64,000 nt of DNA from Patescibacteria group bacterium (lineage in GTDB: Bacteria; Patescibacteriota; Minisyncoccia; UBA6257; UBA9933), in contig JBBUDV010000006.1 in NCBI GenBank assembly GCA_038057075.1, positions 2,216 through 66,215 on the forward strand. The letters run 5' to 3'. Shown one piece after another: positions 9,411 to 49,220 of the stretch. Under the pieces are notes generated by a model. That model was not told the DNA's origin. It was given only the letters and a program-made list of their open reading frames with translations, and did no database searches. Each line of letters opens with the position of its first letter. The stretch's first letter is position 1. Made by a program: the position numbers and the translations under genes.

Positions 9411-10303
9411 AATTTAATGAATAAAACAACAAATCCCAAGCTTATCAATAAAATGGCGATAATTTTTTGGATTATTACCGGCGTTGATATTTTTTCTTCA
9501 AAAATAGCCGGATATTTTATTGAAAGCGCGGTGACAATTAAAAAAATAAAAGCGTATCGCGTTCCTTCCAGGGCGCTGACCAAAGCCACGCTTCCCAGAT
9601 AAATCGCGTAATTTACGAGAATAAAAGCGATGCCTCCGATAATTTTATTTATTATCACCAAAGCCCCCCATTTGAATTTAAGCCCTCGCGAAGTTTTAAA
9701 AATTAATTCGCGGTTTTTGAAAACAATAAGCAAAAATATCGCTCCTAAAAAGCTCCCCAATCGCTGCCAGATAAAACCGGAAATAAAAGGCTGATTTAAA
9801 AAAATGTATTTTGTCAAAATATAAAAAATGGCAAAAAGAAATGCGGCAAAAATTGATTTTTTAAAATGCCCAAATTTATAATTTTTATCGTTTTTTTCAG
9901 CGGAAATCAAAACGCCGCCGCATACCAATAATCCAAAAGCGATAAATTGAAACAAATTTAAATGCGCGCCGAGAATAAAATAACTTATTATTAAAACAAA
10001 AATCGGAGTAAAACCGCCTATAACCGGAATAATTCGCGATGTCTCCCCTTCTCTTAAAACGCTGTAAAAAACTATTAAAGCGGCAAGAAAAATAATTCCC
10101 GCTAAAATTGAAATTAAAAACTGGCTAAAACCGGGCCAGTTTAAACCGAAAGGCGCAAGAAATAAAACAAAAATGCTTAAAATCCCGCTGTAAAAACCGA
10201 GAACAATTGGATGTTGAATCGGTTTTTTTAAAATAAATTTATCTATTACCGAGCTAAAAGCATTTATAAAATAGGCAACGATTGAAATTAAAACCCAATT
10301 CAT
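9407..10303 (-). CDS. EamA/DMT-family transporter
   Basis: 298 aa with about 10 TM segments in a duplicated 5-TM arrangement. Confidence 0.55.
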   Translation of the reverse strand: MNWVLISIVAYFINAFSSVIDKFILKKPIQHPIVLGFYSGILSIFVLFLAPFGLNWPGFSQFLISILAGIIFLAALIVFYSVLREGETSRIIPVIGGFTPIFVLIISYFILGAHLNLFQFIAFGLLVCGGVLISAEKNDKNYKFGHFKKSIFAAFLFAIFYILTKYIFLNQPFISGFIWQRLGSFLGAIFLLIVFKNRELIFKTSRGLKFKWGALVIINKIIGGIAFILVNYAIYLGSVALVSALEGTRYAFIFLIVTALSIKYPAIFEEKISTPVIIQKIIAILLISLGFVVLFIKL

Positions 10304-10310
10304 AATTCAA

Positions 10311-10400
10311 TTACATTTGGCAGCGAGACCGCAAAAAAAACTTAGTTTTATTTGCGGCGAGCGAACCAAATGAAAAAAATGTTACGCTCCGTAACATTTA
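10311..10400. repeat. Repeat family A copy 1 (~90 bp, two-hairpin intergenic element)
   Basis: ttacatttggcagcgagaccgcaaa...tttgcggcgagcgaaccaaatgaaaaaaatgttacgctccgtaacattt. Lies 8 nt upstream of the DMT gene start. Confidence 0.8.
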
Positions 10401-10425
10401 TTATACCATTATCGCCATTACGCTA

Positions 10426-12543: not shown

Positions 12544-12570
12544 CTCTGGAAAATTATAAATGATTTTCTA

Positions 12571-12610
12571 AAAAATAAAAAGCCCCGCCAGTCCATGAAC
12601 TGGCGGGGCG
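12571..12610 (-). terminator. Rho-independent terminator
   Basis: Stem gccccgccagt/actggcggggc with an A-run on plus, giving a U-run on minus. Confidence 0.5.
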
Positions 12611-12694
12611 AATACTACATCCTTCTTTGCAATAGGTAATTGCTCTCAAAAAATATCGCGGACGCATCATAAGCAATACCTCCTTTCATCTTAA

Positions 12695-12877
12695 TTATTT
12701 TTTCGGTTGGCATTGCAGGCAAACTACAGTTGGACATTTTAATATATTTTCTTCGCTTAAAATACCGATATTAGGTTCCCAAACATCATTAATTTTAATC
12801 GCATTGCAACCCGCGCATTTTATGATATTTTCTGCAATATTATTTATTACTTCAGGTCCGCCTTTTATGGTCCGCAT
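12695..12877 (-). CDS. Small Cys-rich protein (putative zinc ribbon), unknown function
   Basis: MRTIKGG... with CAGC...C...CxxC. A GGAGAGGGAG Shine-Dalgarno precedes the chosen ATG. The ORF-track start is 18 nt further upstream. Confidence 0.4.
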   Translation of the reverse strand: MRTIKGGPEVINNIAENIIKCAGCNAIKINDVWEPNIGILSEENILKCPTVVCLQCQPKK

Positions 12878-12935: not shown

Positions 12936-13757
12936 TTATGCAATAATTTTGACAAATCTCCACTTTTTATACTGATCTTTGTAAAATATCCATTTTTTAT
13001 ATTTTAATTGCTTTAAAATTTTCCCGATTAATGGTTTTTGAAATGAGTCAAATTCCATCCATATTTGACAGGTTGGTTTAATATATTGAACCGTTTGTTT
13101 TAAGAATTTTTTAATTATTTTAAGTCCGTCTTTTCCCGAGAATAATGCCTTTTTTGGTTCGTATTTTAAAACCTCCTTCTGAACCCTGTTTTTCCGTTTT
13201 AGAGCGACATACGGCGGATTTGCCAAAATAAAATCGTATTTATCTTTCAATAAATTTAAAGAGTGAACGGCTGTATCAATTATATTTTTACCGCTCGGGT
13301 TAACCCGAGCGGTAAAAATATCTGCCCGTATCACGCGATAACGAGATTTGTTGATTCTATTTATTTTCAAATTTAATTTTATCTGCTTTATCAAATTAGA
13401 ATCAATTTCATAAAAATCTACTTTTGAATTTTTTACATTTTTCAGGACAGAAATTCCCACACAGCCGGAACCGGCGAAAACATCCGCTATCTTTAAAGAT
13501 AGCGGCTTAGCATTCACGGAATAATCCAAAATTTTCGCAATTACTTTTTCAACCCAAAATTCCGTTTCCGGACGTGGAATCAACGGCTTAAAAGAAAGGT
13601 CTATTTCACAGTTTAAAAACGGTTTCCATCCTACGATATAATCAACCGGCTCGCCTTTTTTCAACCGTTTTATGTCATTTTCAATTTCCGGTCGGAGTTT
13701 GCCGCCATATTTATCTTTCAAAATCCAACCGATTTCTTTATAAAAATTTTTGGACAT
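12936..13757 (-). CDS. prmC: Release factor glutamine N5-methyltransferase PrmC/HemK
   Basis: SAM motif DVFAGSGCVGISV and the NPPY catalytic motif FILANPPYV. Confidence 0.8.
   Translation of the reverse strand: MSKNFYKEIGWILKDKYGGKLRPEIENDIKRLKKGEPVDYIVGWKPFLNCEIDLSFKPLIPRPETEFWVEKVIAKILDYSVNAKPLSLKIADVFAGSGCVGISVLKNVKNSKVDFYEIDSNLIKQIKLNLKINRINKSRYRVIRADIFTARVNPSGKNIIDTAVHSLNLLKDKYDFILANPPYVALKRKNRVQKEVLKYEPKKALFSGKDGLKIIKKFLKQTVQYIKPTCQIWMEFDSFQKPLIGKILKQLKYKKWIFYKDQYKKWRFVKIIA
13283..13320. mobile_element. Palindrome-B (38-bp perfect palindrome) inside the prmC coding sequence
   Basis: tatttttaccgctcgggttaacccgagcggtaaaaata encodes IFTARVNPSGKNI between the DIF and NPPY motifs, where PrmC normally has a much shorter spacer. 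An identical copy lies at 17863-17900. Confidence 0.6.
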
Positions 13758-15065: not shown

Positions 15066-16700
15066 TTACTGACCGAGTAATGATTTAAATAAATTAATCA
15101 CTTTACCCAATAATGACTCGTTTGCCGAAGACGGAGGAGGCAACGTTTCCCCGCTTGGAGGTTGCGCGGGCAACATCATGCCTCCGGGATATTGCTGCGG
15201 CTGTATTTGTATTACTCGCTGTTGTATGTTTTTTAAACATTCCTCGGGATTTTCTGATTTAGAGCAAAATTCTTTACATTCCTCGGGACTACTACAAGGC
15301 GCTTCTGCCGTTCCTTGAGGAAACATTTGAGGCGTTTGCCCCTCTACCTCTACTCCGGGCATCATTATATTTTGAGGGATGCCGGGCATTTGAGGCGCTT
15401 GCATCATATTGCCGGGCTGTTTAGAACCGTATTGTTCAAAACAACTTTTGGCTTTCTGTATAAATTCGCCTTTCTCTTCATCTTTCATAACGCCAGATTG
15501 CAATCTGCCGACGGCATCCTCGCCTAAAGTTGTTCTCAAACATTCCTTCATTTCTTGCGACATTGATTCAAATGAAGGCATACCTGTCGGACGACCGTCG
15601 CCACCGGGGCCCATCTGGCCTCCACCAACGCCTGGCGCGCCCATTACGCTTTCAAAACATGCCCGCATTTTATCTCCAATATCTCTTGGAGGCATAATGG
15701 AACCGCTTTTAAGTTTTTCCATCATTTCCGCGCCGATTGTGGAATTAAGGCATTCAATCACTTTTGGCGGCGCCTGGTTCAATATTTCTTGAAATTTTTG
15801 TTTGCCTCCTTCCATTCTTTGAATATCTTCTTGTTTTATAAAGCCGTATTCTTTCGCAAAATTAAAACAGGATTCTTGGTTTTCGGGACTGCTGCAAAAT
15901 GCCTCGCATTGTTCTTTACCGCGGCAATTGCCCGGACCTTTGCCTCCGGTTTTACGCGCCATTTCAGCTTCTTCAGCAGACATAAATCCGGCCGCCTCGG
16001 CGAATTTCATACATTCTTCAAAATGACTTTCCTCGGAACAATAAACGTCGCATTCCTTCTTGCCGCGGCACTGCGGCGGCTTTGCGCCTTTCTTAATGGC
16101 TTCTAAAACCTTTTGCGATTCTTGCTTTTCGTTTTCATCCATTAATCCGGCCGCCTGCGCGAAAATTATACACTCTTCCATATGGTCAACGCTGCCGCAG
16201 TATAAGTCGCATGATTTTTTATTGCCGCAAGAAGGCGGTTTTACGCCTTGTTTTATAGCAGCTCTCACTTTTTTAGCTTCATCTAATTCTTTTGGAGGCA
16301 ATATGTTGTTTTTTTCGGCAAATGTCACACATTCGTCTATATGGGAAATTTCATCGCAATATTTTTCACAGGAATCCTTTGTCGCGCAATTTCCAGGCCC
16401 TTTGCCGGCTGCTAAAAACTTTCTGGCGACATTAATTTTTTCTTGGCTCATTAAATTGTTCTTTTGGGCGAAATCCAAACACTTTTCCCTGTTTGCCGGC
16501 TTATCGCAATAAGCCCTGCAAGCAATTTCATTTTGGCAATTGCCCAATTCCGTAATAGGATATTGGATATTCGCCGCGACGCTTATGCCTGCGCCGGAAT
16601 CGGTTTGCGCCAGCGCGTTGCCGATTAAAATAACCGAAAATATAATTCCAAAACTTAAAACAATTGCGCTAAGATATTTTGTATTCATAATATTATTCAA
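15066..16700 (-). CDS. Secreted cysteine-rich tandem-repeat protein with Gly/Pro/Met/Gln-rich region
   Basis: Signal peptide, then about 6 copies of a ~45-aa module C-x4-5-C-x3-C-x7-8-C (e.g. GNCATKDSCEKYCDEISHIDECVTFAEKNN). Confidence 0.5.
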   Translation of the reverse strand: MNNIMNTKYLSAIVLSFGIIFSVILIGNALAQTDSGAGISVAANIQYPITELGNCQNEIACRAYCDKPANREKCLDFAQKNNLMSQEKINVARKFLAAGKGPGNCATKDSCEKYCDEISHIDECVTFAEKNNILPPKELDEAKKVRAAIKQGVKPPSCGNKKSCDLYCGSVDHMEECIIFAQAAGLMDENEKQESQKVLEAIKKGAKPPQCRGKKECDVYCSEESHFEECMKFAEAAGFMSAEEAEMARKTGGKGPGNCRGKEQCEAFCSSPENQESCFNFAKEYGFIKQEDIQRMEGGKQKFQEILNQAPPKVIECLNSTIGAEMMEKLKSGSIMPPRDIGDKMRACFESVMGAPGVGGGQMGPGGDGRPTGMPSFESMSQEMKECLRTTLGEDAVGRLQSGVMKDEEKGEFIQKAKSCFEQYGSKQPGNMMQAPQMPGIPQNIMMPGVEVEGQTPQMFPQGTAEAPCSSPEECKEFCSKSENPEECLKNIQQRVIQIQPQQYPGGMMLPAQPPSGETLPPPSSANESLLGKVINLFKSLLGQ

Positions 16701-16977: not shown

Positions 16978-17088
16978 AAGAAATTTACTTATATTTATTA
17001 TAACATATAGATAATTCGGCAAAATGTGGATAATCCAATTTCTAAAAAAATGCCCTTTGACGTTGCGTCAAAGGGCTCTTTTTTCATG

Positions 17089-17286
17089 TTATCCGACCAC
17101 ATATAAATATCCGGCAATTCTGTTGCGTCGCCTCTTGCCATTAAAACATTTAATAGACATAACAGGAATTTTTTGCCTCTGAAAATTGCCTTTTAGACAT
17201 CTGTATGTGATTGCGACAATAACTCTTTTGCGAACGTCATTTCTATTGCAACGCAAACTTTTACATCCAAAACAGAATAATTGCAT
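17089..17286 (-). CDS. Small basic Cys-rich ORF
   Basis: Strong SD AAAGGAGG 7 nt upstream of ATG, and a hairpin terminator right after the stop. Confidence 0.3.
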   Translation of the reverse strand: MQLFCFGCKSLRCNRNDVRKRVIVAITYRCLKGNFQRQKIPVMSIKCFNGKRRRNRIAGYLYVVG

Positions 17287-17321
17287 TTCATCGCCTCCTT
17301 TTATCCGATTCTTACATTTGG

Positions 17322-17404
17322 CAGCGAGTCCACAAAGGGAACTTTAATTTCATTTGCGGCGAGCGAACCAAATGAAAAAATGTTACGCTCTGTGGCATTT
17401 TTTA
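17322..17404. repeat. Repeat family A copy 2
   Basis: ttacatttggcagcgagtccacaaagg...tttgcggcgagcgaaccaaatgaaaaaatgttacgctctgtggcatttttt. Confidence 0.8.
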
Positions 17405-17547
17405 TTGAATTTTAATTATTGGAACTAAAAATAGAATATCACTTAAATACTATTTTGTAAAGTGTTTTACTTTTTGCGCAAAAAGTTCGGCGCAAAAAAA
17501 GGCCCCGACAAAATGTCAGAGCCAAAGCGTTAAAACCGAAGTCTGGA

Positions 17548-17661
17548 CTACTTGGAGGGACAGCCGTAGTGGCACAGTTCACCGCCTCTGGAGCAGCTAC
17601 CGCAGGAGCTGATTGTCACTGTCTTGTTTGCCGGCTCTTTCTTGCTGTCGCCTTTTTTCAT
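17548..17661 (-). CDS. Small Cys-rich 37-aa ORF (unknown peptide)
   Basis: MKKGDSKKEPANKTVTISSCGSCSRGGELCHYGCPSK. SD GGAGA sits 6 nt upstream; a sigma70-like promoter (TTGACA-17-TATTTT) and a ~90-nt 5' leader precede it. Too short to appear in the ORF track. Confidence 0.35.
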   Translation of the reverse strand: MKKGDSKKEPANKTVTISSCGSCSRGGELCHYGCPSK

Positions 17662-17750
17662 GCCAGATCTCCTTTTTGTCCGGATTCCTACTTATCCGAC
17701 ATCTAGCCGGCTTGTGGATTCCGAACCATCCTTGGTCATGTTCTGATTAA

Positions 17751-17779
17751 AAAATAGCATATTTATATCAGATTGTCAA
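17751..17779 (-). promoter_or_regulatory. Putative sigma70-like promoter for the 37-aa ORF
   Basis: Minus-strand TTGACA - 17 nt - TATTTT. Confidence 0.4.
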
Positions 17780-17862
17780 GTATTTTAAAACATCATTATT
17801 CGCTTTTATGGAACTTTAATAATTATAGCGCAATTTGTCGTTTTGTGAATAACCTTAAATGA

Positions 17863-17900
17863 TATTTTTACCGCTCGGGTTAACCCGAGCGGTAAAAATA
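17863..17900. repeat. Palindrome-B copy 2, intergenic, terminator-like
   Basis: Identical 38-bp palindrome tatttttaccgctcgggttaacccgagcggtaaaaata, 6 nt after the CAP gene stop. Confidence 0.7.
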
Positions 17901-17905
17901 GTTGA

Positions 17906-18787
17906 TTACTGAAGACATTGATTCAATAAAAACACTTGATTGTTATAAGTTTCAATTATTGTCTTTGTTTGATTAATAAGAGTGTTATACCTGTTTACCA
18001 GCTCATTATATTCTTCTATTTTTTGATTTAAGGAAGGATCGCCTCTTTCCATACTTTCAATCTCGGCCTTTTTCGTTTCAAGAATTGCCGCTAATTGTTC
18101 TATCTCTTTTTTATTAGTATTAATCGCTGATTTTAAATTCTGTTCAATTGCCGGACAATCGGAAGTCGGCCGGCCGAATTCCTGAACCGCAATCCAGACT
18201 TCTTTTCCCTGATAAATTCCTTTCAACGCCGCTACTCCTATTTCTTTATATTTAGAATTTAAGATATTAGCGCGATGCCCCGAAGAATTCATCCAACCTT
18301 CTACCACTGCTTTGTCATTTTCAAAATTTCCCAAAATTAAATTCTCGCCAACTTCCAAATAATCATAGCCCGCTTGTTTTGCCAACTCCGCCGGACCAAC
18401 GCCGTCAACGGGTGAGATATGCTCAAAATATTGATTTTTAAACATATCCCGCGCTTTAGCCAAAGCCGCCTTATTTAAATTTTCATTCTCTTTAAGCGTT
18501 GGAAGTACGGCCATTGCTCTTTCAGTATTAGTCCAAATAATTATTCCTAACGAAGTTAAATTTAATTTATGAACTTCAAAAATTTCTTTAACTATCTTAA
18601 GCGGCGGAGCGGAAATATTTTCAGCGGCTGATTGCGGCGCGGTCAAAAATTCGTTGAATTTTTGATTGGGTTTTAAAGGTTCGGAAAGCGGTTTAGTAGC
18701 CGGCAACTGAAAATTTTTTAAATCGTTTTGAAAAACAAACAGCCCGATTAAAATAAATAAAGCGACAATTAATAACCTAAAAGACAT
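17906..18787 (-). CDS. CAP/SCP/YkwD-like domain protein with C-terminal coiled coil
   Basis: SSGHRANILNSKYKEIGVA matches the CAP signature. Carries an N-terminal TM. Confidence 0.7.
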   Translation of the reverse strand: MSFRLLIVALFILIGLFVFQNDLKNFQLPATKPLSEPLKPNQKFNEFLTAPQSAAENISAPPLKIVKEIFEVHKLNLTSLGIIIWTNTERAMAVLPTLKENENLNKAALAKARDMFKNQYFEHISPVDGVGPAELAKQAGYDYLEVGENLILGNFENDKAVVEGWMNSSGHRANILNSKYKEIGVAALKGIYQGKEVWIAVQEFGRPTSDCPAIEQNLKSAINTNKKEIEQLAAILETKKAEIESMERGDPSLNQKIEEYNELVNRYNTLINQTKTIIETYNNQVFLLNQCLQ

Positions 18788-18804
18788 TTCTGTTTTTTAT
18801 TGCC

Positions 18805-20121
18805 TTAAAAACCTCTGCCAAAGCCCGATGATCTTGACGTGAAATGTTTCGTCCGTCCGCCAAATGCGGAACTCACCGCGCTGTCAGACGCTTTTTTGCC
18901 GACAAAAGTAAGCGCTATTCCTTTTTTGTCCGCTCTGCCGGTTCTTCCTATTCTATGAATATAATCCTCATAGGTTTTCGGAATATCGTAATTAATAACA
19001 TGGCTTACTTCCGGAATATCCAGTCCTCTGGCAGCCACATCGGTTGCCACCATTATCTGAATTTTATTTTCTTTAAATAATTTTAAAGCAAATTGACGGT
19101 TTGAATGAGTTTTATCTCCGTGTATTGAAACCGTTTTAAAACCGCGCGCGTTTAAAGAATTAGAAAGCCGCTCAACTCCCATTTTAGTTGTTCCAAAAAT
19201 CAAAACCTTTTTAAAATTTTCCTTAATCAGCAAATCATGCAATATCTCTGTTTTATCATCAGCCATCCCGATTCTTATCACGTCTTGGTCCACATTGGAT
19301 GAAGTGTCTCTGATTTTTGTTTCAATTTTTACCGGATTTTTCAAAAAACTTTGCGACAAATTTTCAATTTCTCGCGACAAAGTGGCGCAAAACAAAAGTG
19401 TCTGTTTTTCTTTGAACATTTGTCCCAATATTAATTTTATATCATTAATAAAACCCATATCAAGCATTCTGTCGGCCTCGTCCAAAACAACATTTTTACA
19501 TTCGTTCAAATTTATAATTTTTCTTTCAATCAAGTCCTTTAATCTTCCGGGAGTTCCTATTAAAACATTGCATCCGCGCCTTAATTGCATAATCTGTTCT
19601 CTCATACTCGCGCCTCCCACAATCGCGACGGAATAAATATTTAATCCTTTTGAAAAGTCCCTAAATTCGCCGTTTATTTGGAGAGCGAGCTCTCTGGTCG
19701 GAGCCATTATCAAGACCCTTTCCCTTTTATTTTTAATGATTTTATCAATAAGCGGAATCAAAAATGCCGCTGTTTTCCCTGTTCCAGTATCCGCCATGCC
19801 GATTATATCCTTCCCTTCTAAAATTTCCGAAATTGCTTTATCCTGAATCGCGGTTGGTTTAATATAACCTTTTTGAGTAATATTGTTTTTTAATTGCTCG
19901 TCAATTTTATAATCGCTGAATTTATTAGTTGAAACATAATCAACAATATTATTATTTACGCTTGCTTTATTGATAAATTTTGATTCATCAATTTTTGAGC
20001 CCGAAAAACCGCGCGCCTTTCCTCCGCCGCGCCCAAAACTGCGCCCGCCAAATCCATGGCCGCCGCCAAAACTGCCCCTTGATCCGCTTCCGGATCTTTT
20101 GTTATTAAAATTTCCTCTCAT
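18805..20121 (-). CDS. DEAD-box ATP-dependent RNA helicase with RGG-rich termini
   Basis: Q motif, AxTGTGKT, PTRELA, DEAD, SAT and HRIGRTGR motifs. Confidence 0.9.
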   Translation of the reverse strand: MRGNFNNKRSGSGSRGSFGGGHGFGGRSFGRGGGKARGFSGSKIDESKFINKASVNNNIVDYVSTNKFSDYKIDEQLKNNITQKGYIKPTAIQDKAISEILEGKDIIGMADTGTGKTAAFLIPLIDKIIKNKRERVLIMAPTRELALQINGEFRDFSKGLNIYSVAIVGGASMREQIMQLRRGCNVLIGTPGRLKDLIERKIINLNECKNVVLDEADRMLDMGFINDIKLILGQMFKEKQTLLFCATLSREIENLSQSFLKNPVKIETKIRDTSSNVDQDVIRIGMADDKTEILHDLLIKENFKKVLIFGTTKMGVERLSNSLNARGFKTVSIHGDKTHSNRQFALKLFKENKIQIMVATDVAARGLDIPEVSHVINYDIPKTYEDYIHRIGRTGRADKKGIALTFVGKKASDSAVSSAFGGRTKHFTSRSSGFGRGF

Positions 20122-20228
20122 CTCAACAAAAAATAGTAATCCGAGATTACTATTGAGAGATCGCTATTTGGAGATCGCCGAATACGAATTAATCTGAGAT
20201 TGCTAAGTATTTAATTTATTATATCAAT

Positions 20229-20255
20229 ATTATAATACTTATCTTTATTTGTCAA
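20229..20255 (-). promoter_or_regulatory. Putative promoter of the DEAD-box helicase gene
   Basis: Minus-strand TTGACA - 15 nt - TATAAT, then a ~120-nt repeat-rich 5' leader. Confidence 0.4.
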
Positions 20256-20305
20256 TAGCTCGCTTTGTCATTTCCGCGAAAACGGAAATCTAATCATAAT
20301 ATTCG

Positions 20306-20725
20306 CTATTTTACTCCGTGTTCATTAAAAAATGCCGAATACTTTTTATCCGCGACAAGTATGTGTTTTAACAGCCAATTACCGGCATATTCGGCAACTT
20401 CTTCGGATAATTTCTCAATATTTTGATCATCTTTCCTGATTCTGCTTATATAACCATTGGCCATTTCCCTGAACTGGTTATGCGCTTCCACATGAGGAAC
20501 CGCATCTGGATAATCTAATTTATCAAAAAGCTCTTCTTCGGTGCCCAAATGGTAAAACGCGTAATTTCCCATTTGGTTGACAATATCAAATAAAACTTCC
20601 TTTTCTGACGCTTTACTGTTTATAAAATCGGCGATTTTATTTACAATATCCAAAAAATGTCGATGTTGCTCGTCAATCATCTCAATACTCACGCTATAAT
20701 CTTTTGTCCAAATAAATTTTTTCAT
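20306..20725 (-). CDS. Hemerythrin-like (bacteriohemerythrin) protein
   Basis: His/Glu ligands spaced in the HHE pattern (H..HF...H...EE...H...H..D). Confidence 0.7.
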   Translation of the reverse strand: MKKFIWTKDYSVSIEMIDEQHRHFLDIVNKIADFINSKASEKEVLFDIVNQMGNYAFYHLGTEEELFDKLDYPDAVPHVEAHNQFREMANGYISRIRKDDQNIEKLSEEVAEYAGNWLLKHILVADKKYSAFFNEHGVK

Positions 20726-21795
20726 AAGTTGTCCTCTTTGTCTTTGTCGTTGTCAATATCACGAAGTTTTTCTTCCGCTCTGCGAGCCGCCTCTTCAATA
20801 TTTTCTCGCTCTTGTTCTAAACTATCGGCTTCTTTTTCAAATTTTTCTTTCGCTTGTTCTTCTTGTTCTTCTTTCAACTCATTTTCCTCTTCTTTTGCTT
20901 CATTCAAATCCTCAATTGCCTCCCCTACTTTATCCAAACTTTTTTCCGCCTGCTTAGCTAATTGTTTCGCGCCAACATAGTTCTCTTTAGCAAAAAGTTC
21001 TTTAGCTTGCGCAAGAAGCTTGTCAAATTTTTCAAACGCTCCGGCAGGAACACTCGCGCCCTCCTCAACGGCTTCGTCTAATACTTCTTGCCTTTCCTCT
21101 TCAGCTTCTTTTATGGCTTTTTCCGCGTCCTCTTTTTTCTCCATCTCTTTCTCAATCTTTTCTTCTTCCTGTTCTAATGCTTCTTCCTGCTCATCTTCTT
21201 TGAGCTCCAAAAGTTCTTTTTGAGCTTTTATTTCGCCGAGTTCCTTTATCAATGCCTCAACTTGGGCAATATCGTTGGCTCGTCTTGCCTCGCGAATTTT
21301 TGCTTTAAGCTCGTCCTCTTTTGCTTCAAGGGAACGCTTTTGATCTTTAAAGGCCTGTTTGAAAGCTTCTTTGTTCGCGTCAAAATCATCGCTAATGCTT
21401 TTTGCGAGCTCGCTCACATCTTTTCCTTTGGATTTTTCGTCTTCAATAATACCGGCGGCTTTGGCAATGTTTGCCTGAAGCCGAGATTGAGCCACTTCCA
21501 ATCCTTTGGCATTCACGCCTTTCGTTTCCAAAATAATTTTAATTTCAGCGATACGCTCGGCGGCAAAAGTAATTTGAAGACGAGCTTTCCCTTCGGGATT
21601 AAAAGTGAAAAATTCTTGCAACGCTTCTCCGAATCTGTCAAAAAAATAAAACGGGCTTTCCGGAGTTAAACCGGCATTCGGCAATACGGCTTGGTTTTGA
21701 GCAAATCCTTCGACTGGGCTCAAAATAAAAGCTAAAACGGGGACAAACAGGAACGAGATAAAAATAACTTTTATAGTTTTCATATATATCATCAT
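20722..21795 (-). CDS. Secreted DUF5667-like protein with long E/K-rich coiled coil
   Basis: Signal peptide, then a PESPFYFFDRFGEALQEFF-type N-domain, then about 200 aa of charged coiled coil. Confidence 0.5.
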   Translation of the reverse strand: MMIYMKTIKVIFISFLFVPVLAFILSPVEGFAQNQAVLPNAGLTPESPFYFFDRFGEALQEFFTFNPEGKARLQITFAAERIAEIKIILETKGVNAKGLEVAQSRLQANIAKAAGIIEDEKSKGKDVSELAKSISDDFDANKEAFKQAFKDQKRSLEAKEDELKAKIREARRANDIAQVEALIKELGEIKAQKELLELKEDEQEEALEQEEEKIEKEMEKKEDAEKAIKEAEEERQEVLDEAVEEGASVPAGAFEKFDKLLAQAKELFAKENYVGAKQLAKQAEKSLDKVGEAIEDLNEAKEEENELKEEQEEQAKEKFEKEADSLEQERENIEEAARRAEEKLRDIDNDKDKEDNL

Positions 21796-22732: not shown

Positions 22733-23158
22733 CTATTTCAAATTAACTATATAGGTTTTGATAAATTTTTCTATTGCCAATACAGTTTCGGTTTTTAATT
22801 TTGGGTTTGATTCCGCCACCCATTTGGCAAAATTATAAAGTTCTTGATTATCAACTTCCAACCATTTTTTGTTTTTGTGTAAAAAATAAAAAAGTGTCAT
22901 CATGGCAATCCGTTTATTTCCATTTTTAAACGGATGGTTTTTAACCATTAAATAAAATAATACCGACACTTTCCCAATAAATCCTTTATATAACGGCTTG
23001 CCGCCGAAAGTTTGGAATGGCGCGATTAAACAACTTTCTAAAATATTAGGATAACGCGAACTAAAATCAGGAATTGGCTCATCCCATGCCATCATTTCTT
23101 TTGCCAACCAATAAGCGACATATTCAACTTGAATGATTGAAATTATTTTTATTTTCAT
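22733..23158 (-). CDS. Doc/Fic-family toxin, copy 1
   Basis: Doc-type motif HPFKNGNKR. Confidence 0.7.
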   Translation of the reverse strand: MKIKIISIIQVEYVAYWLAKEMMAWDEPIPDFSSRYPNILESCLIAPFQTFGGKPLYKGFIGKVSVLFYLMVKNHPFKNGNKRIAMMTLFYFLHKNKKWLEVDNQELYNFAKWVAESNPKLKTETVLAIEKFIKTYIVNLK

Positions 23159-26056: not shown

Positions 26057-26479
26057 TTAAGATTTTACTATGTATGTTTTGATAAATTTTTCTATTGCCA
26101 ATACAGTTTCGGTTTTTAATTTTGGGTTTGATTCCGCCACCCATTTGGCAAAATTATAAAGTTCTTGATTATCAACTTCCAACCATTTTTTGTTTTTGTG
26201 TAAAAAATAAAAAAGTGTCATCATGGCAATCCGTTTATTTCCATTTTTAAACGGATGGTTTTTAACCATTAAATAAAATAATACCGACACTTTCCCAATA
26301 AATCCTTTATATAACGGCTTGCCGCCGAAAGTTTGGAATGGCGCGATTAAACAACTTTCTAAAATATTAGGATAACGCGAACTAAAATCAGGAATTGGCT
26401 CATCCCATGCCATCATTTCTTTTGCCAACCAATAAGCGACATATTCAACTTGAATGATTGAAATTATTTTTATTTTCAT
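26057..26479 (-). CDS. Doc/Fic-family toxin, copy 2
   Basis: Identical over most of its length to copy 1; the C-terminus differs (KTYIVKS). Confidence 0.7.
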   Translation of the reverse strand: MKIKIISIIQVEYVAYWLAKEMMAWDEPIPDFSSRYPNILESCLIAPFQTFGGKPLYKGFIGKVSVLFYLMVKNHPFKNGNKRIAMMTLFYFLHKNKKWLEVDNQELYNFAKWVAESNPKLKTETVLAIEKFIKTYIVKS

Positions 26480-28733: not shown

Positions 28734-28816
28734 ATAGATTAAAATGTGTTCTATTAAATTTTACCAATTTAGTTTACCAGAAGTTTTTTAAATTTTCAAC
28801 TTAATTTATATAACTT

Positions 28817-28873
28817 TTACATTTGACAGCGAGTCCGTAAATAAAAAAAATGTCACGTTTCGTGACATTTTTT
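28817..28873. repeat. Repeat family A copy 3 (internally deleted)
   Basis: ttacatttgacagcgagtccgtaaat...aaaaaatgtcacgtttcgtgacatttttt. Confidence 0.7.
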
Positions 28874-28880
28874 AAGATAA

Positions 28881-31993: not shown

Positions 31994-32023
31994 ATGTTTT
32001 TAAGATTACTTGCCGCTATTTAT

Positions 32024-32113
32024 TACATTTGGCAGCGAGTCCACAAAGAAAACTTTGTTTTATTTGTGGCGAGAGAACCAAATGAAAAAATGTTACGTTT
32101 CGTGACATTTTTT
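32024..32113. repeat. Repeat family A copy 4
   Basis: ttacatttggcagcgagtccacaaagaaaactttgttttatttgtggcgagagaaccaaatgaaaaaatgttacgtttcgtgacatttttt, between the dnaJ stop and the next gene's start. Confidence 0.8.
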
Positions 32114-33254
32114 ATTCTTCTTCTTTTTCCAAATCCTCTAAAAGTTTTTTAGCCGCGCCGCTGATTTTTTTAGGAGTTTTAACTTTAAGTTTAAGCAATA
32201 AATCGCCTCGGCCACTCCGGTTGAAATGAGGCATTCCTTCGCCGGAAATTCTGATAAACCGGTTAATCTCAAAATCCGCCGGTATTTTCACTTTTATTTT
32301 TCCGCCCGAAATAACGGGAATCTCAAATTCTCTGACGCCGGCAAAATAAAGTAAAAGCGCGATTAAACTGATTTCCTTTTCAATTATCAAATCGTCACTT
32401 TGTCTGGAAAAAATTTTATGAAACTTAATCCTGATAATAATAAATAAATCCCCTTCTTCCATTCCTCTTTCTCCGGCTTCTCCGCCGCCTTTGATTTTTA
32501 TTATCTGATTGTCGGACACGCCGGGCAGAATTTTGATTGTCGTTTCCTTTTCTCCTTTCACGGCTCCCCTGCCTTTGCAAGAATCGCAAATTTTATTGGG
32601 CGTCTGACCCGAGCCAAAACAGCCGGAACACATTTTAACCTGCGTAAAACTGCCGAAAAAAGTGTTCCGATTTTCTTTTATTTCGCCTCTGCCCCCGCAA
32701 ACCGAACACGTGGAAAATCCGGATTTCGGTTCATGGCCCAAGCCGCTGCATTTAACGCATCTGACATCAACTTTATATTTGATTTTTTCCTCCGTGCCGG
32801 AAAACGCCTCTTCCAAACTTATTTCTTGAATCAATTGGATATCGGAACCGTGCTTATAAGTCCGCCTTTGCTCCTTTACGCCCAAACCTTCAAAAAACGC
32901 GTCAAAAATATCACCGATATCCGCGGCTCCTCCTCCGCCAAAATCAAAATTAAAACCAGAAGACCCGCCTTGAGCGCCGCCGAAGGGCCCGCCTTGACCG
33001 AAATCCCAGCCGCCGAATGGACTGCCTTGAGCGCCGCCGGAAGACTGTTCCTCAAAGACCCTGCCGAATTGGTCGTACTGATTCCGTTTTTGAGGATTGG
33101 ATAAAATCTGATACGCTTCGCTTAATTCTTTAAATTTTTTCTCGTCGCCGCCCGGTTTGTCAGGATGATATTTATGCGCCAGCTTACGATACGCTTTTTT
33201 TATGTCGTCTTGCGTGGCGTTTTTTTCAATACCTAAAATTTTGTAATAATTCAT
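32112..33254 (-). CDS. dnaJ: Chaperone DnaJ
   Basis: J domain with HPD; G/F-rich region; four CxxCxGxG zinc-finger repeats. Confidence 0.9.
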
Positions 33255-48231: not shown

Positions 48232-49194
48232 TCAAAATTTCAATGCCTCCAAGGCCTTTATCCTTTCTTCAACCGGCGGATGAGTCATAAAAAGCTTGGC
48301 AATGCCGGAAAGTTTAGCCCCCTTAAAGGGGTTGTCCACCCATAGATGCGCGGTGGCGTTATTGGCTATTTTCATCGGAATCGCGCTTGCGGAAATTTTT
48401 TCCAAAGCCGAAGCAAGACCTGAAGGATTTTTGGTCAAAACCGCGCCCGAAGCATCGGCCAAAAATTCCCTTTTTCTTGATATCGCCAATTGGATAAGCA
48501 TGGCCGAAATCGGCGCGACAATCGCCAAAATAATTCCGACAACGGCAAAAATTTGATTGCCTCCCCTTTCATTATCTCTATTTCTAAAGCCGCCGAAAAA
48601 CGCGCTTCTTAAAAAGATATCCGAAACAATTGAAATAAAACCGACCAAAACCACGACAATTGTTGAAATTAGAATGTCGCGATTGGCAATATGAGACAAT
48701 TCATGCGCAAGCACGCCTTCTAATTCTTTTGCGTTCAATCTTTGAAGTAATCCCGTTGTAACCGCAATCGCGGCGTGTTTTGAATTTCTTCCGGTTGCGA
48801 AAGCGTTAGGTTGAGCTTCATCAATAATATAAATTTTAGGCGCGGGCAAAACGGCTTTTTTCGCCAATTCCCCTACAATTTTAAAAAGTTCGGGATAATT
48901 TTTCTTTTCAACCGGTTTGGCTTTTGTCATCGCCAAAACGATTTTATCCGAATACCAAAAAGAAATAACATTCATCAGCAAACTGAAAACAACCGCAAAA
49001 TATAAAATTGACGGATTGCCGTAAATTCTTGAAAAAAGCCAGCCAATTCCGATGACGCCGATTAAAAAAGCCGCAATTAAAATAAACGTCCTTCTAATAT
49101 TGGAATTTTTACATTTGGCAGCGAGACCGCAAAGAAAACTTTGTTTTATTTGCGGCGAGGGAACTAAATGAAAAAATGTTACGCGTTGTGACAT
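48232..49194 (-). CDS. htpX: HtpX-like M48 zinc metalloprotease (true start uncertain)
   Basis: HELSHIANRD HExxH motif and TM segments. The first ~31 codons of the track ORF are read from repeat-A copy 5. Confidence 0.75.
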   Translation of the reverse strand: MSQRVTFFHLVPSPQIKQSFLCGLAAKCKNSNIRRTFILIAAFLIGVIGIGWLFSRIYGNPSILYFAVVFSLLMNVISFWYSDKIVLAMTKAKPVEKKNYPELFKIVGELAKKAVLPAPKIYIIDEAQPNAFATGRNSKHAAIAVTTGLLQRLNAKELEGVLAHELSHIANRDILISTIVVVLVGFISIVSDIFLRSAFFGGFRNRDNERGGNQIFAVVGIILAIVAPISAMLIQLAISRKREFLADASGAVLTKNPSGLASALEKISASAIPMKIANNATAHLWVDNPFKGAKLSGIAKLFMTHPPVEERIKALEALKF

Positions 49195-49199
49195 TTTTT
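49109..49199. repeat. Repeat family A copy 5
   Basis: ttacatttggcagcgagaccgcaaagaaaactttgttttatttgcggcgagggaactaaatgaaaaaatgttacgcgttgtgacatttttt; overlaps the annotated htpX start. Confidence 0.8.
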
Positions 49200-49220
49200 A
49201 TACGAAATGAAATTCATTAT

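Follow-up and report, generated by a model that had tools for sequence, protein, structure and literature searches.

The closest analogue in architecture to the locus described here is SR1 of Bacillus, a dual-function RNA of 205 nt that has a promoter and a terminator to itself and contains a Cys-rich ORF of 39 aa (PMC3526287). The encoded peptide, SR1P, carries the conserved motifs MGTIVCQ, FEDEK, and VTTLY and conserved cysteines at positions 9, 28, and 33 (PMC3526287). Precursors of SCIFF/ranthipeptides, sactipeptides, and lanthipeptides are ~35 to 50 aa long, with C-terminal cores rich in Cys, Ser, and Thr, and have a neighboring maturase (radical SAM/SPASM or Lan) as their defining feature. 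Leader peptides of the trpL/hisL type are encoded by a short ORF that is followed by an intrinsic terminator and stands ahead of genes on the same strand. Zinc-knuckle and zinc-ribbon micro-proteins include the Cys4 ribosomal proteins bL36 and bL32 and the haloarchaeal CPxCG micro-proteins.

Here, we analyzed a small Cys-rich ORF in a stretch of 64,000 nucleotides of DNA (the window) which, by its neighboring genes, comes from the genome of an uncultured member of the Patescibacteria (Parcubacteria-type) in Hainich groundwater. The original prediction had described a 37-aa Cys-rich ORF with the arrangement CxxC-x6-CxxxC next to a CAP-domain gene and had offered three functions for it: a metal-binding micro-protein, a RiPP-like precursor, or a regulatory leader peptide. 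The ORF is present as described and encodes MKKGDSKKEPANKTVTISSCGSCSRGGELCHYGCPSK, and its upstream neighbor matches PF00188 (E = 1.6e-14). From its sequence features, we judge that the locus may be a self-contained unit producing a lineage-specific, monocistronic micro-protein mRNA with a 37-residue product, and we place the probability of this reading at about 50%.

TABLE 1 Coordinates of the small-ORF unit and of adjoining features, as window positions
Feature	Position	Strand	Remarks
37-codon ORF plus TAG stop	17661..17548	minus	translates to MKKGDSKKEPANKTVTISSCGSCSRGGELCHYGCPSK; GC 0.54, GC3 0.70
Shine-Dalgarno (SD) sequence AAGGAGA	17674..17668	minus	GGAG-to-ATG spacing of 7 nt
Promoter-like site P2, TTGACA-17-TATTTT, TG extended -10	17779..17751	minus	10/12 match; proximal to the small ORF
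Promoter-like site P1, TTCACA-16-TATAAT	17849..17822	minus	11/12 match; upstream of P2
5' leader, ~83 nt, 50% GC	17744..17662	minus	
Leader hairpin, three-tier, stable	17726..17678	minus	fold tested against shuffles
Intrinsic terminator, 10-bp stem (6 G-C pairs) then T7	stem 17523..17501; whole 17523..17494	minus	
Segment absent from the next relative (L082)	17797..17315	minus	P2, small ORF, terminator, AT-rich spacer, and one ~95-nt repeat copy; present in the window and in the strains from wells H51/H52
Repeat-family copy, ~95 to 125 nt	17418..17294	minus	downstream of the small-ORF terminator and ahead of the 65-aa gene's SD
Stop of the CAP-domain gene	17906	minus	upstream neighbor of the small-ORF unit
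Perfect 19-bp palindromic terminator	17900-17863	minus	between the CAP gene stop and P1

The small-ORF unit is compact, measuring ~250 nt, and has a GC content of 50 to 57% compared with 23 to 33% in its flanks (Table 1). Both the TTGACA-17-TATTTT promoter and the GGAGA Shine-Dalgarno sequence at good spacing, which the original prediction had named, were found on the minus strand. The predicted transcription start from P2 lies at ~17744, and the leader counted from there is ~83 nt rather than the ~90 nt first given, although its structured character holds. Reading back from the ATG, an in-frame TAA stands ten codons away, and no other start codon lies between the two. Beginning 25 nt past the stop codon is an intrinsic terminator that did not figure in the original prediction and that rounds off the unit. 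Promoter and terminator signals alike lie on the minus strand, with no plus-strand counterparts across the locus. Promoter-like matches are not locally enriched (6 seen versus 6.5 expected), and P1 could also read into the unit. As sequence, the unit is real; its expression is plausible.

Set beside SR1/SR1P, the locus shares the form of a stand-alone unit of ~200 to 250 nt that has a promoter and an intrinsic terminator to itself, as well as a single ORF of 37 to 39 codons that specifies a small, non-hydrophobic, Cys-rich peptide, a kind of ORF commonly missed by annotation. The likeness does not extend to sequence or distribution. All three SR1P motifs are absent from MKKGDSKKEPANKTVTISSCGSCSRGGELCHYGCPSK, the unit has no Rfam match, and it lacks a known base-pairing target or a GapA-type partner. 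It also belongs to another phylum and occurs in one species-level population, whereas SR1 is conserved across Bacillales with synteny. With zinc-knuckle and zinc-ribbon micro-proteins, the peptide has in common a very small size, a basic character, four cysteines within ~15 residues that include a CxxC knuckle, and the lack of a hydrophobic core, so that folding is expected to be metal dependent. However, its second pair is CxxxC(P) rather than CxxC or CPxCG, and no match to a family of this kind was found for the peptide in Pfam, NCBIfam, or PDB.

The original prediction had noted direct GGAATCC repeats and a CCGG stem in the leader and had proposed folding it and searching Rfam. The fold bears these elements out: the two GGAAUCC copies are the two strands of a stem that closes around an inner GCCGG/UCGGC-type hairpin. 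This structure is far more stable than chance, with a minimum free energy (MFE) of -23.0 kcal/mol versus -10.7 ± 2.5 for dinucleotide shuffles (z = -4.9) and with 0 of 150 shuffles as stable. The leader hairpin and the terminator are the only genuine structure in the transcript. RNA of the ORF segment is at the level of dinucleotide shuffles (z = 0.04), so the GC-richness of the unit does not reflect unusually stable RNA, and the full-length fold has a z of -1.9 on the minus strand and 0.1 on the plus strand. Pairing of the SD with sequence after the stop codon, as in the closed mRNAs of type I toxins, does appear in the MFE fold, but this rod does not exceed shuffles (z = -0.37). Type I toxin-antitoxin systems combine a small hydrophobic (transmembrane) toxin with an overlapping antisense RNA. 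We rejected such an mRNA on the ground of the rod and because the peptide is hydrophilic and basic and the plus strand has no promoter or terminator signals across the locus. A CsrA-type leader was set aside by eye, given that the GGA motifs lie in the GGAAUCC stem and not in loops. The Rfam search returned no family for the leader or the transcript on either strand. Across the whole window, matches at the gathering threshold were limited to six tRNAs, and a permissive scan of 17350-17950 gave sub-threshold, chance-level matches, none of them over the transcript body. Known noncoding RNAs (6S, SRP, tmRNA, RNase P, riboswitches, and SR1) were accordingly discarded as candidates, having no match at either stringency. 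The transcript shows no complementarity of >13 nt to the rest of the window.

Whether the ORF is coding was assessed from intrinsic evidence. A codon log-odds score trained on the long genes of the window puts the annotated frame ahead of the other five (+0.07; the others range from -0.05 to -0.61). Such a value would rank among the highest 3.5% of non-coding frames but only at the 7.7th percentile when set against real gene windows of 37 codons. Among 67 intergenic ATG-ORF entries of 30 to 70 aa in the window, five carry an SD core of 5 nt or more. These five represent three distinct loci, the small ORF included; another of the three is the 65-aa ORF, whose substitution pattern is coding. An SD-like motif precedes only about one-third of the long genes in the window, which indicates that the motif is not ubiquitous background. 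The conjunction of a strong SD with a small intergenic ORF is therefore unusual, but a 37-codon ORF by itself is nothing special where GC is so high: ORFs of 40 to 47 aa occur in four other frames of the same stretch. Composition speaks against coding: the GC3 of 0.70 lies above both the mean (0.39 ± 0.09) and the maximum (0.65) of 362 gene windows of 37 codons each, and synonymous codon choice falls in the bottom 0.3%. This objection is softened because Gly/Cys-rich coding segments of the genome reach 0.55 to 0.61 GC (0.61 in the DnaJ zinc-finger region), and a GC content of 52% or more is common over stretches of such coding sequence. The same native segments weaken the case for a foreign origin based on GC alone. 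Gene callers left the small ORF uncalled on every one of the many assemblies of the Hainich population. Overall, the intrinsic evidence leans to coding, and these sequence signals make it somewhat better than an even bet that the small ORF would be coding, whether or not the transcript also acts as an RNA.

No database searched holds a relative of the peptide, which is thus an orphan. A phmmer search against 1.84 billion cluster representatives gave no matches at E ≤ 0.001, and a word-index search of 5.8 billion clusters, for which a 40-aa padded version of the peptide served as the query, gave no candidates. No family was matched in Pfam (E ≤ 1) or NCBIfam (E ≤ 10), and PHROGs, PADLOC, and PDB sequences likewise held no match. 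An exact-sequence look-up did not find the peptide recorded as a called gene, even though its contigs are in the collection. Scanning metagenome contigs with the degenerate motif C-G-x-C-x2-G-G-x2-C-x-Y-G-C yielded 41 matches, of which one was the same Hainich population and 40 were unrelated, nearly all of them in low-complexity DNA coding for Cys and Gly; the same motif was not found in viral contigs. Plasmid and phage DNA showed no similarity to the small-ORF unit, and a plasmid or phage origin was dismissed for that reason.

Comparison among relatives places the unit in a single species-level population. The CAP protein occurs at 100% identity on 21 European Nucleotide Archive (ENA) contigs from wells H41 and H43, and the six of these that were compared show 100% identity over 17400-17905. 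The strains from wells H51/H52 (L078-L081 and L095) form a second cluster, which is likewise identical over 17950..17484. From 17400 to 21264, ~22 of ~3,870 columns (~0.6%) distinguish the two strains. At this divergence, ~1.4 differences would be expected in 250 nt and none would be seen with a probability of ~0.24; none was observed across the strains, so the conspecific identity of the unit is uninformative about selection.

The next relative, L082 (Logan SRR12113407), has flanking genes at 83 to 89% nucleotide identity and entirely lacks the block listed in Table 1 at the syntenic site. There, the homologue of 17842-17798, with the P1 TATAAT inside it, runs directly into the leader of the 65-aa gene; the P1 -10 element and 45 nt downstream are conserved. 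L082 lacks the DEAD-box and CAP genes as well, between hemerythrin and the junction with the 65-aa gene, and keeps the downstream genes (65, 96, and 556 aa) without the small-ORF unit. Farther afield, a synteny walk based on the CAP gene gave 65 GTDB loci, the best at 49% identity. Further CAP relatives were found at 94% (SRR4188643) and at 59 to 64% identity, the latter with different downstream genes. More distant relatives retain a cluster of 9x-aa, 5xx-aa, and RRM genes, and their upstream genes are unrelated. A second synteny walk went through the 94-aa downstream neighbor. In 130 loci outside the Hainich population, neither the peptide nor the DNA of the unit was present. The search of related genomes proposed in the original prediction thus came back empty beyond this population.

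Downstream of the unit in the window are genes of 65, 94, and 544 aa. The protein of 544 aa is very Cys-rich and holds six Cys modules. The gap of ~210 nt between the small-ORF terminator and the first of these genes contains another promoter-like site and a copy of a repeat element. This repeat family (~95 to 125 nt) is species specific and is represented in the window by four full copies and one partial copy, each of them on the minus strand; the copy beside the unit is context and lies outside the small-ORF transcript. No inverted terminal repeats were found for the ~480-bp block, and the sole flanking direct repeat is 11 nt, which gives no clear sign of mobility. Genes annotated in window positions 1-34351 include type IV pilus/T2SS, ROK kinase, GH5-like, EamA, DUF4015, FKBP, rhodanese, and methyltransferase genes, together with genes for an RRM protein, hemerythrin, DEAD helicase, CAP, M23 peptidase, Fic, GIY-YIG, DnaJ, and PCMT. 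Among these annotated genes (Pfam, ORFs of ≥100 aa), there is no RiPP maturase, protease, or exporter, and the annotation of the same interval has no radical-SAM/SPASM, Lan, or YcaO-type gene.

The four cysteines of MKKGDSKKEPANKTVTISSCGSCSRGGELCHYGCPSK are at positions 20, 23, 30, and 34, and the last is followed by P. The N-terminal half is lysine-rich, and the whole is hydrophilic and basic, without a hydrophobic stretch. Unless the four cysteines chelate a metal, such a peptide would be expected to be disordered. AlphaFold2 run on the single 37-aa sequence gave a pLDDT of 57, with no secondary structure and no confident fold; low confidence is expected for a metal-dependent peptide lacking an alignment and hence does not count as support. 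The C-terminal CxxxCP is similar to the end of ferredoxin-type cluster motifs, which we take as a lead only, but the spacing of x2, x6, and x3 fits no tested family. We rejected the idea that the peptide arose as a duplicate of the DnaJ zinc finger or of the Cys modules of the 544-aa protein (BLASTP E values of 0.3 to 0.6). An HMM of the modules scores it at -1.8, below many shuffled peptides.

Of the three functions first offered, a metal-binding micro-protein appears the most plausible, on the basis of the SD/ATG geometry, the codon score, and the unexceptional structure of the ORF RNA. The unit would then be transcribed from a sigma-70-type promoter starting near 17744, and possibly from the upstream promoter-like site too. 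The stable leader hairpin would probably stabilize the mRNA or modulate initiation, the transcript would present the AAGGAG Shine-Dalgarno sequence 7 nt ahead of the ATG, and transcription would be expected to end at the strong intrinsic terminator 25 nt past the stop codon. In the product, a lysine-rich and probably disordered N-terminal half would precede what is most economically seen as a small metal-binding knuckle, holding Zn(II) or possibly an Fe-S center. The basic tail could touch nucleic acid or another protein, and its lysine richness suggests an electrostatic partner. The unit as a whole is an accessory element of no known family; close relatives differ by its gain or loss as a block of ~480 bp.

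Several features of the locus might instead be those of a noncoding small RNA, in which the ~250-nt transcript itself would be the product (trans-acting or protein-binding) and the ORF and its SD-like purine tract would be fortuitous. In an AT-rich genome, a transcript that is GC-rich throughout, leader included, within AT-rich flanks is a classic mark of an sRNA. The dedicated promoter, strong terminator, and length of ~250 nt fit as well, as do the atypical codon usage (GC3 and synonymous choice), the ORFs of 40 to 47 aa in other frames, the fact that the small ORF was never called as a gene, and the z of -1.9 for the full-length fold. Yet structure outside the leader hairpin and terminator equals that of shuffles (ORF z of 0.0, rod z of -0.4), no Rfam family was matched, complementarity elsewhere in the window does not exceed 13 nt, and high GC occurs also in the Gly/Cys-rich coding regions of the genome. 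A purely RNA-based account also has no explanation for the geometry of SD and ATG or for a codon score that is best in the annotated frame. We regard it as unlikely, though worth serious consideration. By analogy with SR1/SR1P of B. subtilis, the RNA might both encode the Cys-rich peptide and act by base-pairing. The combination of a ~250-nt transcript and a 37-aa Cys4 ORF does closely parallel SR1, but the lack of SR1 homology, of an Rfam match, of the SR1P motifs, and of a candidate base-pairing target within the window makes a dual role improbable. A still more specific combination, a Patescibacteria-specific dual-function RNA encoding a basic Cys4 metal-binding micro-protein and recently gained as a ~480-bp cassette with the species-specific ~95-nt repeat, would be a long shot on these sequence features. 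Similarly improbable is that the ~480-bp block is a recent, nonfunctional insertion, possibly gained with the adjacent repeat, whose features have no selected function. Its presence or absence between close relatives (it is missing from L082), its position beside a species-specific repeat family, its orphan status in all databases searched, and its atypical composition would fit such an origin. Chance alone, however, is unlikely to bring together a perfect -35, an extended -10, an SD at 7 nt, and a prompt strong terminator, and the block shows no plasmid or phage similarity, no inverted terminal repeats, and a direct repeat of just 11 nt.

The two other functions that the original prediction had offered fared poorly. 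As the leader peptide of an attenuator for the 65-aa, 94-aa, and Cys-rich 544-aa genes, possibly sensing cysteine supply, the ORF would have four Cys codons, a terminator downstream, and a very Cys-rich protein among the regulated products, and a 6-nt AGAGCC within the ORF could pair with the 5' arm of the terminator. The differences from trpL/hisL-type leaders are nevertheless substantial, because the ORF has no run of regulatory codons, its Cys codons being dispersed and not in tandem, and overlaps neither the terminator nor an anti-terminator. With the stop codon 25 nt ahead of the terminator stem, a terminating ribosome would not reach the stem, and no alternative helix attained significance (rod z = -0.37). 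The unit ends in its own strong terminator, ~210 nt before the next gene, and that gene has separate promoter-like signals with a repeat element in between; in L082, the same downstream genes are present without the unit. We therefore hold attenuation to be very improbable. Least credible is a precursor of a modified peptide (lanthipeptide, sactipeptide, or ranthipeptide-like), to which we assign almost no weight. Ser, Thr, and Cys are indeed abundant in the C-terminal half (TVTISSCGSCS...C...C), which follows a short, charged N-terminal part. Set against this, none of the maturases that define such precursors, and no protease or exporter gene, is annotated in window positions 1-34351, precursor-family HMMs of NCBIfam and Pfam gave no matches, no leader or cleavage motif is recognizable (a leader of 13 to 19 aa would be unusually short), and the peptide has no homologues anywhere searched. 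The micro-protein mRNA remains the reading that we prefer.

In the Candidate Phyla Radiation (CPR), small genes systematically escape notice, and to our knowledge, nothing is known of regulation by sRNAs or micro-proteins in these organisms. Within that setting, the locus is a family-less small Cys-rich ORF or sRNA unit, which is unsurprising in an unannotated CPR genome, and this species-restricted orphan opens no long-standing question. Its practical value is as a defined target for existing Hainich metatranscriptomes and metaproteomes, in which the ~250-nt transcript and the tryptic peptides TVTISSCGSCSR and GGELCHYGCPSK could be sought. Should the dual-function cassette be real, it would represent de novo or cassette-borne birth of a small gene in an ultra-reduced genome. 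If the small ORF is translated, it would add one more unannotated micro-protein of the CPR and would be a clear instance of close relatives that differ by the gain or loss of an entire unit, from promoter to terminator.

The 65-aa basic ORF encoded on the minus strand is conserved at the amino acid level at 95% in strain H52, from the second strain cluster of the Hainich groundwater population, and at 79% in L082, the nearest different relative (Logan SRR12113407). Because numerous synonymous and conservative changes accompany this conservation, the ORF is, judging from sequence comparison, very probably a real gene that is unannotated or rarely called. Its initial ~95 nt, including the Shine-Dalgarno (SD) sequence, are almost invariant, L082 included. 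Searches of Pfam and NCBIfam returned only a sub-threshold S17e-like match.

Just upstream of this ORF lies one copy of a repeat family of ~95 to 125 nt, with about 80% column identity; GTAACATTTTTTCATTTGGTTC and CTCGCTGCCAAATGTAA are examples of its long blocks without variation. The genes just downstream of the copies are unrelated to one another: the 65-aa ORF, an EamA transporter, a 154-aa/PCMT pair after dnaJ, and an M48 peptidase. The predicted fold comprises two domains with two compensatory pairs. The family had no match in Rfam and was not found in L082 or any other fetched locus; it could be a species-specific 5′-UTR/promoter module or a MITE-like element.

Positions of small ORFs, repeats, terminators, and neighboring genes (window coordinates unless a locus is named)
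Feature	Position	Strand	Remarks
Repeat family, full copies	17294-17418, 10295-10421, 32005-32132, 49091-49216	-	
Repeat family, partial copy	28808-28874	-	
65-aa basic ORF (MQLFCFGCKSLRC...)	17089-17286	-	Cys-x2-Cys motif
SD of 65-aa ORF, AAGGAGG	about 17293-17299	-	7 nt upstream
Terminator of 65-aa ORF itself	17052-17076	-	
Two small intergenic ORFs	12554-12670, 12695-12877	-	38 and 60 aa
Two Fic/DOC-domain ORFs (141 and 140 aa)	22733-23158, 26057-26479	-	identical Pfam scores
544-aa predicted secreted protein	15066-16700	-	
Perfect 19-bp palindromic terminator (TATTTTTACCGCTCGGGTT/AACCCGAGCGGTAAAAATA)	17863-17900		after CAP gene
Near-identical second copy	about 13278-13322		after another gene, ~4.5 kb off
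Copies in L079 (H51/H52 strain cluster)	L079 3368-3410, 7395-7439		

Two further intergenic ORFs, of 38 and 60 aa, may be unannotated genes, and strain H52 has called genes of 48 to 53 aa at the equivalent place. The 38-aa ORF has a 7-nt SD core and sits directly upstream of the rhodanese gene; the 60-aa ORF carries a zinc-ribbon-like CxxC...CxxC arrangement. Separately, about 35 unrelated metagenome contigs (L087 to L127) have in common a near-identical short low-complexity stretch that translates to FCCGYCCCGG(I/T)GC*YGCCGY. This stretch is unrelated to the 37-aa Cys-rich peptide, and its retrieval reflects nothing more than a fit to the degenerate Cys/Gly motif used in the scan.

The 544-aa protein, which had no match in Pfam, consists of six C-x5-C-x3-C-x9-C modules. 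No other gene differs nearly as much as this one between the H41/H43 and H52 strains: differing columns reach 20 to 45% per 200 nt, versus about 0.6% upstream. Homologues in relatives span 533 to 644 aa and are always downstream of a 9x-aa membrane protein.

The identical Pfam scores of the two Fic/DOC ORFs suggest a recent local duplication, with a spacing of about 3.3 kb. In the window lineage, the interval between the hemerythrin and 65-aa genes holds genes for a DEAD-box helicase and a CAP protein (17906-20121; about 2.4 kb); L082, compared at 845-890, lacks both there. This difference in gene content marks the locus as a hotspot where genes are gained or lost.
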